Of a stretch of 57,809 nt of DNA, positions 18,001 to 27,000 are shown in pieces. Position numbers: made by a program. Source of the stretch: Candidatus Micrarchaeota archaeon (GTDB lineage Archaea > Micrarchaeota > Micrarchaeia > Norongarragalinales > UBA8480); contig JAZDHP010000029.1 in the NCBI GenBank assembly GCA_043805855.1, positions 1 to 57,809 on the forward strand, written 5' to 3'. Each line of letters starts with the position of its first letter. Within the stretch, counting starts at the first letter, position 1.

Positions 18001-21000
18001 ACTAGAAGAAATTGTCGCGCATCGCTTGTCGCTTGCGCGAGGCGAGGCAACTGTGAGTGTGAAAAATGCAGATAGTAGAATGGCACGAGACTTGCAAGAC
18101 ACTGCCCTATCTCTCAAGGCAATTGACATGGAAGTTAACTTCGAGCGCGAACCAATACAGAAGATAAACTTCTCGCAATATCTCTCGCCAATGGGCGCGG
18201 CAGGAAAGATGGAGAAATTTACCCTCGCAGACAACCCCACTATTCCAAAGAAAGTTTTAAGTTTAGTTGAAGAAAAGTTAAAAGTTACAACTGCAGTTTA
18301 CGAGGGGTTCCAATTCCTAGGCGATACTTACTATTTACAACGCGTTTTGTCCAGCGGTGCGCTTGGCGAAGAGAAAAAACTAGTGCCAACCCGCTGGTCA
18401 ATCACTGCAGCTGATGATATTATTACAAAGCAACTACTCGGCGACGTGCGTGAGTTCCGTGCGTTGAACGAAATCACGGTTTACAGCAACAAATGGATGG
18501 GAAACCACTTCGAGATTGTGTTCCTCCCGGGAATGTGGGAATACGAGCAGTTTGAATCCTGGGAGCCTGGAAGCTACTGGGCGCAGAAGTCAAACGCGAA
18601 CGCCTACGGCGTCGCAACCTCCGACCCACTGGAATACGAGTACGAGCCCTTCGAGGGACGAACAGCTTATGCTGAGAGAGAAGGGGGAGGATATTACGCT
18701 GGTCGCATCGCGTGCGTTGAACATTTGCACAAACTGAAACGGCAAGCGCGAGTAATTGTACTGCGGGAGATAAGCGACGAGTATCAAGTCGCAGTCGGCG
18801 TGTGGCAAGTGAGGCAAAACTGCCGTGAGGCGTTGAAAAACGAACCAAAGAAATTCCAAAATCGCAGCGAGTTGCTAAACTATTTACAAACTGCACTGAA
18901 AAGGCCTCTTTCGCAGTACACTTCCAAAAGCAGAGTGTTGACACAGCGCAAGTTAGTGGATTTTTAGCGAAGCACATTAAAAAGTTAGAATTACTTAAAA
19001 CACTTATCATGATAAAAGCGACAAAAACAATACAGGCGCATAACAAAGTACATGGCGCGTATCTATTGCGTGAAGCATATCGGCATTTAGAACCCGGCGC
19101 TAGGGAAAAAATATGCATTGCTCCTTTCAAATACGTTGCTCCAGTTCATTCTTTTGAAGAAATCAAAGCCAAAGTAATTAGACTTGCAAAAGGTAACCCT
19201 GCAGCTGAAAGAATACTTATTCGAGGCAATCCAACGGAAAACATATTAACTGGGGGCACTCGCCACGAGCGATATGCTATTGCCCCGCGTGGCCACTTCC
19301 ACACCAAACCCGGCCAATTCACTTGGGATAATACAATTGAAGATCAAGTTTTAATGCATTATGATCCACACACTAGATTGGTTAAACGCAAAGAAATAAC
19401 GCCCGGAAGCCATGAAGAAAAGCAATTAGTTTATCATTATCGCACAACAAACTGGCTGTTGTATCCAACTAAAGCACAAGAACAAATTGCTTTTGGTGGG
19501 TCTTTCCTTGTCAAAACATTTGCAAGGCGTGGCTACGCTGAAATAACTTGGTACACTGGCGATTTTCGCAATCCAAGCACAAAGCAAGAACACATTGCAC
19601 TTCGACTAAACAAGTCAACCGGCAAAATCACAATTCCACCAGAACACCAAGGCAAACTAGAACTAGTTGAACAGCATAGCCAAGCTCTAGGTAGATTTTT
19701 GAAAGCGCTTGCCAATGCACCAGGTGTGCGCGGAACAAACAGCCGATTTAGATTAAGATTTACCGTGTGGAAAGACGAACCAAACAAACTAGAGTTCTAT
19801 GACTGCATTAAAAGTGGATACATAAAATTCGTTGCTGGAAAAAGAATGCTTGTTTAAACCCACTAACGCAACTTAGTAAAACCTTCACTGGCTAATTGTT
19901 TCTATGCACATTGACGAAGATGTCCACGATCGCCAAAAGAGAGTTAGCGGCTGGAGTCAGGAGAAAATTGCTACTTCTAATGTTGCGGTTGTCGGCGCTG
20001 GTGCTTTGGGCAACGAAGTTGTCAAGAATCTATTACAACTAGGCGTTTCCAGCATCTCGATTATTGATTATGATGTTATTGTAAAGGCTAATTTGAACCG
20101 CTGCGTGTTGTTTACAGAAGAAGACGCGGAAAACAAAGCGTTGAAAGCCGAGGTGCTTAGCCAAAGAGGTAAAAAACTCAACCTCCTTGCGAAAATAACT
20201 CCAGTTTTGAAAAACGTCGAGGAGCTGGACGATAAATTCTTCTCTCAATTCGGCTCAGTGTTCGGCTGCCTTGACAATTTAGGCGCGAGGGTACATGTAA
20301 ACGCAAATTGCTACGATTGCGTTCCGTTTATCGATGGCGGAACAAGTGGGTTCATGGGCAAAGTACAAGTCGTTGCAAAGCCGTCAGCGTGTGTTGAATG
20401 CGCGCTCTCAAAGCAAGATTATGGTTTACTGTGGAAAAAGTACTCGTGCACCGGCGATTTGCTTGATGTGATGGACCCAAAGATGCCCGCGCTGCCCACA
20501 ACGACGAGCGTAATCGCAGGAATCCAAGTAAACGAATTTCTTAAACTCCTAAACCCGCAGTTGAAAGGCAAACCTCTCGCGGGGAAATACCTTTTCTATA
20601 ATGGTTTAACCAGCGAAACGAAAATGTTCACCGCTGAAAAGAGAAAGGGCTGTCCAGCGCACGAATAGGAGAATAAGCAAATGTTAAAAACATCAAAGTT
20701 GTAATTAATAAAAGAGGTAATAATTCAATGGAAAACTTGTTAAAAACTACGTTGCGTGGTGGAAAGAACCTTGGTATTGCAATTGTAGCCGGCTCTGCAA
20801 TTAGACGGCTAGTGCAAACCAAACAAGGCGAAGCAGCAGCCAAGGCACTAAAACAACACTTGCGTCCCGGGCTATACTCACTTAAAGTGAATGAAGGCGC
20901 AACGCACGCGGTTTTCACAACGGAAACCACAATAATAAAACCTTTCCCAGGTGCAAGAGAAAGGCCTGGAACAATTGTACGCATTCAACTAGTTGCGCTC

Positions 21001-24000: not shown

Positions 24001-27000
24001 ACTTTGACGCTCTTCAAACCAAGCAACAAACGCGCTTCTTTAGTTGCTTGCGCTTCAATCGTCTTTACTTTACCTGGAGAAAAAACAACCTCGCGGCTAG
24101 AAGCATAATCCCGCCACCAAGGTTGACCCAAAACAAACGACCGCTCTGGCTCTTTTACAAACAAAGACGTCGGCTTAAGATTAGACAACGTTTGAACGTG
24201 TACAACTGAACGCATGTTTCCTCGTCGAGTATATCCGCGCCAATTTTCAGGCATTAAATGCTCGTGAGGAACACTACAAGTTGGCAAAATAACAACGCGA
24301 TGCCCCGCAGGAGTGTGCAAAACCTCTAGTCTTGAAAGTCTTCGCACTTTTGTAGGTTCTTGAAGTTCAGTCATTGCAAGAATAATTCGCGTGGCAAGGC
24401 ATAATAAATTTCCGGCTGTAACCATTAGCGAGGCGAATAGAACATGGCAGAGTTTAACATTAAAGTTTCACACACGACAAGCGGAAAAGAAATAACCCTA
24501 GCAGTTGAACCAGAATTCACCGTACAATCAGTTTTGGATGTGCTAGTTGACTCCCTACAACTAAAAGACCGCTTCGTGTTGGCAAAAGCTTCTGACAACA
24601 AAATCCTAACGCCAGAAATCACAATGAACGACGCAGGCGTAAAAGAAGGCGAAACGCTACTACTGATGCCTGATCCTACTGGCGGCTAAAAAAATAGAAA
24701 TATAAAACAGAAAAGGCGAAAAACAACAATGCCAAAATTACCTGAGTCAATTTGGCGTCGTAGAATAGACAATGAATATGCAGAACTTAGCCGCAATTTA
24801 AAAATTGCAAACCTAGAGGCAAACAGCGACAAAACAGAATATCACTTTACCTTAAACGCTACCGCGTACAAGAAAAACGGAACTGCAATTGTTCCAGTTA
24901 GCATGCACAACGTTTCAATTTACTTAACGCGGGAATACCCGTACGCTGGCGGGATTGAAGTCATATGGGATAGTGATATTTTTCATCCTAACATCCGCGC
25001 TAAAGACGGCGCAGTTTGCATTCAAGTGTTAAACCACTGGAGTGAATCGCAAACACTGTCAAGTGTCGTTGACGCGCTTGTACAAATGTTGGAAAATCCA
25101 AACCCCTACTCGCCGTTGAACAGTGAAGCCGCGAAATACTTCGCTAATTACATCCCGCAGAAAACTGAACCTGGAAAACCGAGAGTGGTTGTTTGAACGA
25201 AACCACTGAACAAAAACCTGAAAAATTCCAATTAGCAAAATTTGCATCGCGAGCTGAACAAAGAAAATCTTTGAGAAAAGGAAAACTAGCTTTTAAAATA
25301 AACGGAAAAGTTGTTGCAATTGGTTTAACAAACGGACCAACCCCAATTGACCATCGTTCGCTTGTAGCAGTTTTGCACGATAGCGCGGGAAATTACCTTA
25401 TACTTCGCCGAGATCAATATGACACCCTTACAGTTCATTTACCGATGCAAAAAAAAGGAGACCGCGAGAAACAAATTGGAACCTTTAACCTACGCTTCAT
25501 TGACCGCTGGCTTGATCCGGAATTTAGAAGAAGAGGAATCGCGACACACGCTTTGAAATGTATAGAAAAATTACATGCCGCATACTATGGCGGCGGGCCT
25601 AACGTATTTGGAACTGTAAAACGCAGCACGGCGCTATTCTTAGCTAAGCGCGCACATTATGTAGAAGAGGAAAGCGGGCTAACCTTAGCGCAAATTAGAC
25701 GAAGTGGAGAGGAGCTACCGCGGATGGTTTACTTTAAGCCAAAACCAACTAAGCCAGCGTTTACAAAACAAGATCTTGAACAAAACCATGTACTAGTAGT
25801 AGCTGGCCATAGCGGCAAGCGAGAATGGTATGTATTGCCAAGGCGAGAGAAATGAAGCCAAAAGTAATTGAAACAAAAGAAAGGCCGATAAAGAAGCGCA
25901 AGCCCCCGGCTGGAGAAGAAATTGTTTATAGTTACGCGCCAAAATAATCAAAATGTAATTGAAATAAAAGAAGAGAAGTAAAATGAATCGACAAGAACTA
26001 AAGGTGTGGAAGGCGTTACTGCGAGAAAAGACGTACGTTGGTGGCGATGATTCTTTCAAGTTCAAAACAACAAGACAAGTAGAAACTGAAGAAAAAAACA
26101 GGGGAATTGACAATTATTTAATGGGTAAATTATTACCTACATTAGATGCGCTGCCGCATGGCGCGCGGGTTTTAGAGCTCGGAATTGGAAAAGGTGTTGC
26201 GTTCGCTGAACTGCGCAAAAGATACCCTCATTTGAAATTCTATGGAACTAACTACTATCCAAAAGGTAAAAATCCATCAACTGAACCACACGTTGCTTTC
26301 GCAGAAGGAAGCAACTTACCTTACCGCGATGCGGGTTTTGATTTTATTTACAGTGTTGCAATGTTTCCCTACGTGCCAGATAAACTAAAGCACTTGGAAG
26401 AAGTACACCGCGTGTTGAAAAAAGGTGGAAAGGCGTTACTTTACCACGAAAGCAGGTTTGGCGCGTATCCAAAAGGCAAACAACTAGTAGACGTACGCTT
26501 GCAGGATAAACCAGAAATAAAAATTCACGGCACAGAAAAAGGAGTAATTGAAATAACCAAACAAAAACCTCGCCTGCGCTTTGGAATGAAACTAAACTTA
26601 AAACAATGCAGCACCGCTCACTTTTTTGAAAGCATTTATCATCCAAAACCACAAAAGAGAAGTGCTTTGCGACGCCAGCAAAGAAATGAGTAAATAGAAA
26701 AATAACTTAGCGTCTTCGCAACGGTTGGATTTCACCGCACTTTTTACAGATTTTTTCCTTGCGCTTCCACACGAATTCAAAATCTACTCCACCACAACCC
26801 GGACAAGTCTGCGCAGTATCTGTATTATTGTGGAATTTTTTCCAACTTTCCTTCGTGTCGCTAAGCGGCTGGTTGAAAACAAAACGACGCGGCGCAACCG
26901 CAGTTGGAGCGACAGGCGCAGCAGCGGTGTTTTCTGGAACAATAACTACTTTAGTTGTAGCGGGAGCAACTTCCTCTGGAATAGAAGAAGTTTGAGTGGA

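Follow-up and report, generated by a model that had tools for sequence, protein, structure and literature searches.

In the accessible text of PMC5654768 and PMC6043591, Caldiarchaeum subterraneum (Aigarchaeota) carries a Ub/E1/E2/srfp operon with an adjacent Rpn11-like protease gene, and these parts, which are homologous to those described here, worked as a cascade in vitro (PMC5654768). Bacterial and archaeal "Cluster III" versions of the gene set have also been published, as given in the accessible parts of PMC5654768 supplement Note 4 and PMC4571572 section 9. As far as the literature could be searched, we found no report of such a kit in any DPANN archaeon. We describe a cluster with the same five roles as in Caldiarchaeum, located in a stretch of 57,809 nucleotides (the window) from a member of the order Norongarragalinales of the Micrarchaeota; NCBI labels the homologues of this kit as Candidatus Micrarchaeota. 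The genes for a ubiquitin-like modifier (Ub), E2, E1, JAMM protease (JAB) and winged-helix/RING-like protein span positions 19904-25196, and our coordinates equal those of the survey's finding, which had placed a five-gene ubiquitin set here, with all five genes recovered. They are listed with the small genes and inserted genes of the region:

19904-20668, + strand: E1 (g00549), 254 aa; residues 17-251 match Pfam ThiF at E 9.8e-46.
20728-21114, + strand: g00550, insert outside the conserved kit; at 0 of 62 loci of the order.
21116-22093, - strand: RING-like protein (g00551), candidate E3 with a winged helix and a C-terminal C4HC3 finger.
22090-22566, - strand: JAB (g00552), 158 aa; Pfam JAB at 47.4 bits (cut-off 22.5), E 2e-12.
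22547-23341, - strand: g00553, insert outside the conserved kit with a Kdo/WaaP/RIO-like kinase fold; at 2 of 62 loci.
23343-23633, - strand: sp1 (g00554), conserved small protein, encoded upstream of JAB; N-terminal motifs KPRVV and KPKII.
23685-24425, - strand: g00555, insert outside the conserved kit with a kinase-like fold; at 0 of 62 loci.
24444-24689, + strand: Ub-like modifier (g00556), 81 aa, Gly-Gly and then the stop.
24729-25196, + strand: E2 (g00557), 155 aa; Pfam UQ_con at 70.4 bits (cut-off 27), E 1.6e-19.
25193-25855, + strand: g00558, insert splitting E2 from sp2, with a weak acetyltransferase-like motif; at 0 of 62 loci.
25852-25947, + strand: sp2, conserved 31-codon gene, in relatives immediately after E2; N-terminal motif KPKVI.

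We consider it likely that this kit was inherited vertically and forms a minimal ubiquitylation system in which each step has a single gene; gene presence, catalytic residues, conservation, gene order and single-copy state were established directly. In common with Caldiarchaeum, it has a canonical E2, an Rpn11-like JAMM protease, a ubiquitin closest to eukaryotic ones and a zinc cross-brace E3 candidate. Compared with the Caldiarchaeum system as set out in the accessible text of the same papers, however, the Ub stops at Gly-Gly without a nine-residue propeptide, the 254-aa E1 lacks the C-terminal ubiquitin-like domain (PMC5654768 supplement Note 4), and the E3 candidate is a multi-domain protein of 250-400 aa with a winged helix and a C4HC3 finger in place of a small RING-H2 protein. 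The kit also has two extra small proteins, and its genes form two divergent units, one of JAB-RING and sp1, the other of Ub-E2 and sp2; E1 converges on RING.

The earlier claim that E2, E1 and JAB lie above the Pfam cut-offs is confirmed by the values listed. We class the E2, on its sequence, as a canonical ubiquitin-conjugating enzyme with an HPN motif and Cys97: F85, H86, P87, N88, C97, N102, W104, P124 and N125 are invariant in 54 sequences, all 54 of which also carry the C-terminal tail motif P-[RK]-[IVL]-[IVLM], and the best solved relatives are eukaryotic UBE2A/Rad6-type E2s (3e-13). The JAB product is classed by its residues as a JAMM/MPN+ metalloprotease and a predicted Rpn11/CSN5-like deubiquitinase, with E31, H92, H94, S102 and D105 retained in 52 of 52 orthologues and PDB matches to Rpn11 (9e-15), CSN5 (3e-13) and the solved Caldiarchaeum Rpn11-like structure (2e-12); it is the sole JAB match in the genome. 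The Ub-like protein is, as described earlier, an 81-aa ubiquitin fold with nothing to trim after its Gly-Gly. It is the most conserved part of the kit (65-91% identity across 17 of 18 sampled loci), with Lys15, Lys41 and the PDPTGG tail conserved, and 7 of 56 Ub genes extend 1-5 residues beyond Gly-Gly, which would leave a maturation job for the JAMM protease.

Analysis of the E1 showed it to be of the short type, with Pfam recognizing an adenylation domain only, and the lack of the ubiquitin-fold domain (UFD) by which eukaryotic E1s and the Caldiarchaeum type recruit the E2 counts against a ubiquitylation reading. Residues R66, D124, C163, C166, C182, C250 and H253 are retained in 45-46 of 47 orthologues, and the Cys equivalent to Cys182 is invariant in 30 relatives outside the order. 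From these alignments Cys182 is the candidate catalytic residue, and Cys163, Cys166, Cys250 and His253 form a candidate zinc site.

Each of the five kit parts is single-copy in the genome, which also encodes both proteasome subunits. UQ_con is present in 63 of 68 genomes of the order, including all 22 high-quality ones, and 47 of 401 sampled genomes of the phylum contain it, all 47 of them inside the order and none among the 352 sampled from the rest of the phylum. Thus, within this sample, the five-part cluster of Ub, E1, E2, RING-like protein and Rpn11-like JAMM protease is confined to the order, as had been proposed. The five genes occur in canonical order at 44 of 62 other loci (median span 3,994 bp), and neighbors among the 62 loci include genes for D-aminoacyl-tRNA deacylase (33), Nre (26) and the Lhr helicase (22).

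Our search also showed that the kit is larger than five genes. The sp1 family occurs at 34 of 62 other loci, at 30 of them in the JAB-Ub gap and always on the JAB strand, and a profile built without the genus of g00554 matched g00554 alone among 8,760 genome ORFs (E 6.1e-7); sp1 is a conserved sixth kit member. The sp2 family is found on the E2 strand at 30 loci, at 24 of these within ~20 bp of the E2 end, and a profile built without any window sequence matched 25825-25947 (E 9.6e-6, among 8,760 ORFs); sp2 is a seventh, small kit gene. The kit therefore does not end at 25196, where the earlier account had closed it, since sp2, which normally adjoins E2, lies beyond that point. A short strand-like terminal motif is common to sp1, sp2 and the E2 tail. 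The survey's finding had also restricted g00550 and g00553-g00555 to the same genus, which is wrong for g00554, given its family in other loci, while g00550, g00555 and g00553 are rarer than genus-wide, as their counts above show. There was no Pfam or PADLOC match for g00550 and no Pfam match for g00553 or g00555. In the ESM Atlas, g00553 resembles Kdo-kinase clusters (feature score 0.97, structure TM 0.72), as does g00555 (structure TM 0.59, with an Atlas record that begins at residue 18), and g00558 matches Pfam Acetyltransf_1 under the cut-off (E 0.02).

Outside the order, the nearest E1 relatives lie in Ub-E1-E2-JAB operons of Asgard archaea, Thermoplasmatota, Thermoproteota (Desulfurococcales) and many bacteria, e.g., Planctomycetota and Actinomycetota. 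The kit is therefore less exclusive than claimed, and the statement that it is otherwise known from Aigarchaeota, Asgard archaea and eukaryotes was too narrow; the earlier interpretation is thus partly supported, in that its core reading holds and three side statements fail as written. The archaeal operons with a short E1 (Asgard archaea, Thermoplasmatota, Desulfurococcales) probably correspond to "Cluster III" in the accessible part of PMC5654768 supplement Note 4. Their E1s, of 255-300 aa, belong to the same family (E 1e-68 to 1e-85 with the profile of the order), are linked to E2, Ub and JAB homologues and conserve the crossover-loop Cys. The gene order in these operons differs, being JAB-E1-E2 with Ub opposite in Asgard archaea and E1-Ub-E2-JAB in Thermoplasmatota. 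Bacterial E2-E1-JAB operons (of Planctomycetota, Actinomycetota and others), Bil and CBASS Cap2-Cap3 likewise join genes of these three enzyme families, but the bacterial operons encode E1s of ~390-460 aa and JAB proteins of 300-600 aa, and the profiles of the order score them lower (E2 1e-11 to 1e-19). In an E1 tree made by a quick method, the order forms its own clade (support 93, or 96 for 16 of its 17 rows), nested in none of the Asgard, Thermoplasmatota or Desulfurococcales groups, with bacterial E1s in a separate clade (support 98).

The RING-like protein (325 aa if translation starts at a GTG, 318 aa if at the first ATG) consists of a Lys/Glu-rich tail, a winged helix (~56-125), a conserved helix pair (~180-206) and the finger (255-301). 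Ligands C255, C258, C277, C279, H284, C287 and C301 are invariant in 71 family members, and C298 and L257 are retained in at least 90%, in agreement with the Cys/His pattern noted earlier. We consider this protein a probable RING-type ligase (E3), a call made from the invariant ligands, weak profile matches to RING domains only and a model of moderate confidence (pLDDT 71.8). A reading that we regard as unlikely has the cascade end at E2, with the winged-helix/zinc-finger protein binding DNA to regulate the cluster or other genes and not serving as an E3; the kit would then resemble the four-gene operons of other prokaryotes, as a tagging system of E1, E2 and JAB. Consistent with this, the winged helix (pLDDT 94-96) matches DNA-binding domains of the MarR/ArsR/DtxR type over 60-70 residues at an rmsd of 1-2 A (Foldseek prob 1.00), and its resemblance to ordinary DNA-binding regulators also counts against ubiquitylation, as do the C4HC3 ligand pattern, compared with the RING-H2 of the proven archaeal E3, the moderate model and the weak or sub-threshold matches of the finger. 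No member reaches the Pfam gathering score; zf-RING_2 matches 9 of 71, with a best E of 5.4e-4. In addition, the related Thermoplasmatota and Desulfurococcales operons have Ub, E1, E2 and JAB with no RING partner detected. The winged-helix RING protein is missing from the Asgard operons too, the RING profile of the order giving one weak match in 80 loci; in its place, 6 Asgard loci have a gene nearby for a membrane protein whose RING-like finger is all-Cys. Against a regulator, the finger has eight-ligand cross-brace spacing and a conserved Leu (L257), set between the first two Cys where the E2 is usually contacted, and its profile and model alike match the domains of RING E3s and not zinc fingers that bind DNA. 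For example, 8 of 12 PDB rows for the profile are RING fingers, with RING E3s on top (best the gp78 RING, E 0.0067); RING-finger domains, mainly from E3 ligases, make up nearly all of the best 50 Foldseek rows, although the matches are individually weak (prob <=0.98, TM 0.44-0.52, E >=0.03); and nearly all 50 rows of the VIA-wide search are RING or U-box, again individually weak (top Z 5.7, all Z <8). Furthermore, the gene overlaps or adjoins JAB inside the kit at 47 of 62 loci, and the RING domain profile has the same range as E2, being found in 48 of 401 sampled phylum genomes, i.e., in 48 of 49 sampled within the order and 0 of 352 outside.

It is very improbable that the kit is an anti-virus system of the Bil or CBASS Cap2/Cap3 kind, tagging phage or host proteins on infection. 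Bacterial defence systems do pair E1, E2 and JAB, and the E1 matches PADLOC Cap2 "E1-E2" models at ~1e-12, but these matches are limited to its nucleotide-binding N-terminal third, and PADLOC defence models otherwise match the kit only weakly, with JAB hitting JAB and BilC models (BilC E 0.0037), E2 at E 0.0084 and no match for Ub. The near-universal presence of the kit in the order, its fixed place beside the housekeeping genes named above and the conserved Ub are unlike patchy, fast-moving defence islands, and make a defence role unlikely. We give equally little credence to sulfur transfer (MoaD/ThiS-type chemistry) or E2-independent sampylation by the Ub-like protein and E1, for although this E1 resembles MoeB/ThiF in size and in the layout of its zinc site, and its Cys lies in a short crossover loop, a separate gene on another contig is the better ThiF/MoeB match (E 1e-57), the E1 scores far higher against eukaryotic E1s (yeast Uba1 2e-28, SAE2 2e-23, UBA3 1e-21) than against ThiF/MoeB (2e-14), the 60 PDB matches listed for the Ub profile are all ubiquitin, ubiquitin-derived proteins or the DSK2 Ubl (E 0.0015-0.013 for single ubiquitin units) with MoaD, ThiS and SAMP absent, and a canonical E2 with intact active site is predicted to be co-transcribed with the Ub gene.

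Under the ubiquitylation reading, in which every chemical step, the E3 role and the substrates are taken from knowledge of the families, the modifier would be made ready for use with its Gly-Gly end pre-formed. The short E1, probably a homodimer like MoeB/ThiF, would adenylate it and probably hold it as a thioester on Cys182, in the short crossover loop, before handing it on to Cys97 of E2. The winged-helix/RING-like protein would use its two-zinc cross-brace finger, with the Leu that separates the first two Cys, to dock the charged E2, and its winged-helix and helical parts would choose the substrate. The Rpn11-like JAMM protease would remove the modifier and, in the minority of relatives with residues past Gly-Gly, trim the precursor, and sp1 and sp2, sharing their motif with the E2 tail, would probably be accessory binders. 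Possible fates of the tagged proteins are proteasome targeting or regulation of DNA-bound proteins.

In eukaryotes, Rad6-Rad18 is an E2/RING pair. Among solved E2s, Rad6/UBE2A-B come closest to the kit E2, the E3 candidate combines a RING-like finger with a nucleic-acid-binding-type domain, and the DNA-repair genes Nre and Lhr flank the cluster, but apart from the RING fold no sequence relation to Rad18 exists, and a link of the kit to PCNA or DNA repair is a conjecture by analogy. Kept by nearly the whole order of a tiny-genome DPANN archaeon, the kit would be a stripped-down natural version of eukaryote-style protein tagging.

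Our analysis confirmed the survey's finding that five genes, encoding a ubiquitin-like modifier (Ub), an E1, an E2, a RING-like winged-helix protein (g00551) and a JAMM protease (JAB), lie between positions 19904 and 25196, with the E1, E2 and JAB exceeding the curated Pfam cut-offs and with their solved relatives in agreement. The end of this stretch at 25196 does not stand, a 31-codon gene (sp2) at 25852-25947 having been overlooked. The regions surrounding the E2 gene were taken from all 62 other E2-bearing genomes of the order, and the genes in these loci were placed by profiles. 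The small gene upstream of JAB, g00554 (sp1), had been thought restricted to the same genus, which proved incorrect: in 34 other loci a member of its family precedes JAB on the JAB strand, and a profile built without this genus has g00554 as its sole match in the genome (E 6.1e-7). The features of the region are as follows.

17786-18967, + strand, Nre (Nre_N 3.6e-76), two genes upstream of E1
19904-20668, + strand, E1, 254 aa (Pfam ThiF E 9.8e-46 over residues 17-251)
21116-22093, - strand, RING-like protein, 325 aa, or 318 aa from the first ATG, with weak winged-helix and RING matches
22090-22566, - strand, JAB, 158 aa (Pfam JAB E 2e-12)
22547-23341, - strand, g00553, small kinase fold of Kdo/WaaP/RIO-like type (ESM Atlas structure, TM 0.72), no Pfam match
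23343-23633, - strand, sp1 (g00554)
23685-24425, - strand, g00555, small kinase fold of Kdo/WaaP/RIO-like type (ESM Atlas structure, TM 0.59), no Pfam match
24444-24689, + strand, Ub-like modifier, 81 aa, ending PDPTGG followed by the stop codon
24729-25196, + strand, E2, 155 aa (Pfam UQ_con E 1.6e-19)
25193-25855, + strand, g00558, Acetyltransf_1 E 0.02, with a weak acetyl-CoA-binding-like motif
25852-25947, + strand, sp2, displaced from E2 by the inserted g00558

In the window's genome every kit part is single-copy, the proteasome is represented by two subunit genes, and a further gene of ThiF/MoeB type lies apart from the kit. The cluster is 5.3 kb long (6.0 kb if sp2 is counted), an enlargement that is due to four inserted genes, i.e., g00550, g00555 and g00558, which are present in 0 of the 62 loci, and g00553, present in 2 of 62. 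The sequences of g00553 and g00555 are barely alike, and inspection by eye places a His at the usual catalytic Asp position of g00553 (HTHPGTRN). The g00558 gene shares 4 bases with the end of E2, at the stop codon, and sits between E2 and sp2. Between the annotated g00555 start and the Ub start, on opposite strands, there are 18 bp (24425-24444); the true start of g00555 is probably further in, since its ESM Atlas record begins at residue 18, and this would leave room for a Ub promoter.

Within the phylum sample, the kit is confined to the order, as the survey had claimed: UQ_con was found in 47 of 401 sampled genomes, all of them in the order (47 of 49), and in 0 of 352 outside. The RING domain profile matched 48 of the 401 sampled genomes, again 0 of 352 outside the order, and one matched genome had no detected E2. 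Across the whole order, UQ_con is present in 63 of 68 genomes and in 22 of 22 high-quality ones. Among the five genomes with no E2 match, one shows an incomplete E1 where a contig ends, and in the other four, which are 61-79% complete, neither E2 nor E1 was found; we do not read this absence as loss. All five genes occur in the arrangement E1> <RING <JAB ... Ub> E2> in 44 of the 62 loci, spanning 2,960-5,973 bp (median 3,994), and the 18 partial loci are mostly located at contig edges. The E2 gene is set apart from Ub and the other kit genes, by about 11 kb or more, in one genus and in another single genome, with all parts kept (for example, 181121-181360 vs 192682-192924 on contig C9 of genome G004; on separate contigs in genomes G003 and G064). 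The conserved neighbours are housekeeping genes, with a D-aminoacyl-tRNA deacylase beyond E1 in 33 loci, an Lhr-type helicase beyond E2 in 22 and, in 26 of 62, Nre among the genes fetched. We considered whether the cluster came from a eukaryote, by contamination or by transfer, and rejected this, given a 57.8-kb contig with archaeal genes such as Nre and a cluster that is syntenic across the order.

The Ub gene product has the C-terminal Gly-Gly and the likeness to ubiquitin expected of a modifier. The PDPTGG tail has neither Arg nor Lys close to its end, so that digestion with trypsin would not yield the standard di-Gly remnant on a modified protein. Of 56 Ub genes, 45 end exactly at GG, 7 run 1-5 residues past it, with endings such as GGKR and GGV, and in 4 the chosen open reading frame has no Gly-Gly near its end, probably through a wrong choice of frame. 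Identity is 65-91% in 17 of the 18 first-sampled loci, with K15, K41 and the tail conserved. The Pfam ubiquitin match lies below the cut-off (E 0.028), and the sequence alone gives weak matches to single ubiquitin units in the PDB (E 0.08-0.5); a profile of 18 orthologues matches such units at E 0.0015-0.013, with all 60 PDB sequences listed being ubiquitin, ubiquitin-derived designs or fusions, or the DSK2 Ubl. The survey's structural model predicts a beta-grasp fold (pLDDT 89, TM 0.85 to 6fno_D). The E2 scores 70.4 bits against a UQ_con cut-off of 27 and has both the HPN motif and a catalytic Cys; all 54 sequences compared have F85-H86-P87-N88, C97, N102, W104 and P124-N125, and identity across the order is 39-77% (first-sampled loci). 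Its closest solved relatives are UBE2A/Rad6-type and other eukaryotic E2s (220 PDB chains at E <=0.001, best 2.9e-13), and some of the order's E2s carry the NCBI product name "ubiquitin-conjugating enzyme E2". A homologue search with the E2 alone gave 45 matches, none from outside the lineage and the named ones being Micrarchaeota/Micrarchaeia, in a word-based search that cannot prove absence. In the JAB protein, the JAMM metal site (E31, H92, H94, S102, D105) is kept in 52 of 52 orthologues, and the best PDB relatives are Rpn11 (8.9e-15), PSMD14 (3.7e-14), CSN5 (3.1e-13) and the Caldiarchaeum Rpn11-like protein (2.1e-12), with BRCC36 and AMSH far below Rpn11 and CSN5; the metal site and these relatives place it in the Rpn11/CSN5 group of JAMM/MPN+ proteases.

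The E1 scores 156.3 bits against a ThiF cut-off of 28.1, and 45-46 of 47 orthologues retain GxGxxG, R66, D124, C163, C166, C182, C250 and H253. We take C163, C166, C250 and H253 to be a structural zinc site and C182, in the short loop following the CxxC, to be the thioester Cys, on the basis of what is known of MoeB/ThiF and E1 proteins; the equivalent of C182 is invariant in 30 E1 relatives outside the order. The protein is thus predicted to be a ubiquitin-type E1, with a Gly-rich loop, the adenylation Arg and Asp and a candidate thioester Cys. In E1s of the eukaryote/Caldiarchaeum type, a C-terminal ubiquitin-fold domain recruits the E2. Neither this domain nor an inserted catalytic-Cys domain was found here, where the ThiF domain fills the 254 aa, and orthologues of the order are 244-300 aa long; judged by its sequence, this E1 is an adenylation domain alone, with no room for a Cys domain or a ubiquitin-fold domain. 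The "eukaryote-type" label given by the survey is a better fit for the E2, Ub and JAB than for this short, adenylation-only E1. Against the PDB, the E1 matches Uba1 (2.2e-28), SAE2 (1.7e-23) and UBA3 (1.2e-21) ahead of ThiF/MoeB (about 2e-14) and Cap2 (1e-6), a closeness to eukaryotic E1s that refers to PDB scores only, our E1 tree holding no eukaryotic sequences.

An exhaustive search for E1 relatives identified 141 cluster representatives at E <=1e-30, the few named ones being archaeal (Altiarchaeales, Thermoproteota, Caldarchaeum, Bathyarchaeota). The alignment of E1 relatives was also scanned against one genome per species, giving 80 loci, in which the order's profiles revealed three arrangements: JAB-E1-E2 with Ub opposite in Asgard archaea, E1-Ub-E2-JAB in Thermoplasmatota and one Desulfurococcales genome, and E2-E1-JAB, with an E1 of about 400 aa, in Planctomycetota, Actinomycetota and other bacteria. 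Besides the window's E1 and 16 orthologues, a quick maximum-likelihood tree of 82 rows took in all 30 archaeal loci, every third bacterial locus (16 of 48) and 18 of 150 representatives, with the genome's second ThiF as outgroup. In this tree the 17 rows of the order group in a clade of their own (support 93, or 96 for 16 of them), and Thermoplasmatota (99), Asgard (100) and long-E1 bacterial sequences (98) form separate clades; the backbone among these four has no resolution with this quick method and 82 rows, and we propose neither a donor nor a direction of transfer. Since the order has its own E1 clade beside separate archaeal and bacterial ones, we infer that its kit branched off long ago within a prokaryotic family of wide but scattered occurrence, and is not a recent import. 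In the part of the published classification that bears on this point, Clusters I and II have an E1 with a ubiquitin-like domain, and Cluster III, related to bacterial operons, has an E1 without it (PMC5654768), a split that the order's short E1 matches.

RING fingers have the spacing C-x2-C-x(9-39)-C-x(1-3)-[HC]-x(2-4)-[HC]-x2-C-x(4-48)-C-x2-C, and the pattern of the finger in the RING-like protein, C255-x2-C258-x18-C277-x-C279-x4-H284-x2-C287-x10-C298-x2-C301, is a C4HC3 cross-brace set whose eight ligands follow this rule. C255, C258, C277, C279, H284, C287 and C301 are invariant in 71 family members, at least 90% of which retain C298, L257 and H276. The spacing falls between RING-CH and PHD, and Leu257 occupies the usual E2-contact position of RING fingers. 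The Pfam zf-RING family scores 13 bits on the window protein (E 0.13), below its cut-off of 27.3, and zf-RING_2 and Prok-RING_1 each match 9 of 71 members at E <=0.1, with a sub-threshold best of 5.4e-4. A profile built from 48 sequences over the C-terminal 81 residues recovered 12 PDB sequences at E <=10, of which 8 are RING fingers, with gp78/AMFR the best (E 0.0067); in the gp78 alignment, Ala281 stands at the first-His position of RING-H2 fingers, and it is invariant in the 18-sequence alignment and nearly so in the 71. The full-length model is poor over the finger (pLDDT 45-74), and a finger-only model from 48 sequences reached pLDDT 71.8 (72-86 over residues 11-60). With this model, the best 50 Foldseek matches were almost all RING fingers, chiefly of E3 ligases, at weak values (E 0.033-0.25, probability up to 0.98, TM 0.44-0.52), and in an independent structural search of 48,161 chains nearly all of the 50 listed were RING or U-box, with a weak top Z of 5.7. 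The survey's RING-like finger is upheld by the eight-ligand pattern, and falls short at the Pfam cut-off; with four agreeing independent lines and the gene's fixed place, each number being weak, the finger is likely but not proven to be of RING type.

The same full-length model predicts a winged helix at residues 56-125 (pLDDT 94-96), which resembles DNA-binding domains of the MarR/ArsR/DtxR type, and a helix pair at residues 180-206 (pLDDT 82-85). Identity of the protein across the order is 24-55% (first-sampled loci). A search with the family alignment gave 61 relatives, none from outside the lineage, in a word-based search that cannot prove absence; all 61 are without a Pfam domain, and the named ones are Micrarchaeota "hypothetical protein" entries. 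Six Asgard loci encode multi-pass membrane proteins, 316-398 aa long, within 5 kb of the short-E1 JAB-E1-E2/Ub operon. At the C-terminus these carry a RING-like finger whose ligands are all Cys (Prok-RING_1 1.4e-4, zf-RING_16 1.1e-4), and paralogous copies are present in several of the loci (locus L051, 10016-11059; L056, 2516-3484 and 3658-4761; L064, 9773-10969; L067, four genes; L073, three genes; L075, 7602-8630).

The E2 and the two small proteins share a motif, P-[RK]-[IVL]-[IVLM], that ends the E2 and begins both sp1 and sp2, the sp2 family following E2 in 30 loci. This motif is present in 54 of 54 E2 tails, 31 of 35 sp1 and 27 of 30 sp2 sequences, and within the last 14 residues of only 4 of 1,332 long open reading frames of the genome; the stricter K-P-[RK]-[IV]-[IVL] occurs 7 times among all open reading frames of at least 50 aa, 3 of these in the cluster. 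Several Thermoplasmatota E2s of related operons end in RR-[IV]-R-[IV]-[IV]-G. Asgard E2s beside a short E1 (loci L049-L076) end in an acidic run, then four Ile/Val and two Asp/Glu (mostly DD), an ending that resembles a SUMO-interaction motif (SIM) and is present in 16 of the 16 Asgard-type sequences listed. These endings and the shared motif may be strand-forming docking elements, possibly SIM-like ubiquitin binders.

We consider it likely that the kit would operate as a working minimal E1-E2-E3 cascade with a dedicated protease, because the active sites are intact, each part is single-copy and the kit is retained order-wide, because the Ub tag is under strong purifying selection, and because the cascade of the Caldiarchaeum homologues is reported as biochemically proven (PMC5654768, PMC6043591). 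The main alternative is that the winged-helix/zinc-finger protein is a regulator and not an E3; the DNA-binding-type winged helix is compatible with this and the RING-dominated matches of the finger favour an E3, and we regard a regulator as unlikely. A defence role is far less probable. The E1 matches the Cap2 models of PADLOC only over residues ~3-130, the other parts match poorly or not at all (E2, E 0.0084; BilC, E 0.0037; Ub, no match), so that no Bil or CBASS type II system is recognized, E1 and E2 are separate genes and not an E1-E2 fusion as in Cap2, and, in contrast to patchy defence islands, the kit occupies a fixed, housekeeping context in 63 of 68 genomes. A sulfur-carrier role for Ub and E1 is just as improbable, given a canonical E2, a Ub profile that matches ubiquitin only, among the matches listed, and a separate ThiF gene. 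This second ThiF-family gene (G000, the window's genome, contig C19, 11649-12278, + strand) is of MoeB/UbaA type (E 1e-57), and may serve a SAMP or sulfur-carrier pathway apart from the ubiquitin kit.

If the minimal cascade is combined with the motif and the winged helix, a ubiquitylation machine can be envisaged that is self-contained, tethered to DNA and equipped with a short-motif code of its own, a joint reading that we put forward as speculative and, taken whole, improbable. Here the P-[RK]-[IV]-[IVL] strand of the E2 tail and the sp1 and sp2 N-termini would be a SIM-like element for non-covalent ubiquitin binding, which would substitute for the E1's missing ubiquitin-fold domain or drive chain building, and the winged-helix/RING protein would put charged E2 on DNA so that proteins of replication or repair are modified, as with Rad6-Rad18. 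Nre and Lhr, which flank the cluster, fit such a reading.

Ubiquitylation with an E1, an E2, a RING E3 and an Rpn11-like protease has been discussed, from Aigarchaeota and Asgard genomes, as a legacy of the archaeal ancestor of eukaryotes. In a full-text literature search, which extended to neither image-only nor bioRxiv supplements, we found no paper reporting a ubiquitin kit in DPANN archaea; the word ubiquitin is absent from the main text of two papers treating the order (PMC8561730, PMC12892359), and Supplementary Figure 1 of PMC5654768, or its "4 cases not shown", might include Micrarchaeota genomes. What is new here is a Caldiarchaeum-like parts list in which the E1 is of another type, the E3 architecture differs and further small members are present. 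Compared with Caldiarchaeum, the only reconstituted archaeal system, the order's Ub is ready-made, its E1 has no E2-recruiting domain, its E3 candidate is multi-domain with a DNA-binding-type module, and there are two small partner proteins; the Caldiarchaeum srfp is a small, single-domain RING-H2 protein (C3H2C3), in contrast to the C4HC3 finger, 325 aa and winged helix found here.

Almost without exception, the genomes of this DPANN order, about 1 Mb in size, retain a complete, one-gene-per-step kit, and this near-universal retention argues that the kit does something that reduced cells cannot drop. The kit is a compact model for E2 recruitment and substrate choice prior to eukaryotic elaborations, and for the role of ubiquitin in a cell with so few possible substrates. 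Ubiquitin kits are also spread over more of the archaea than the usual account, with its focus on Asgard lineages, would imply.
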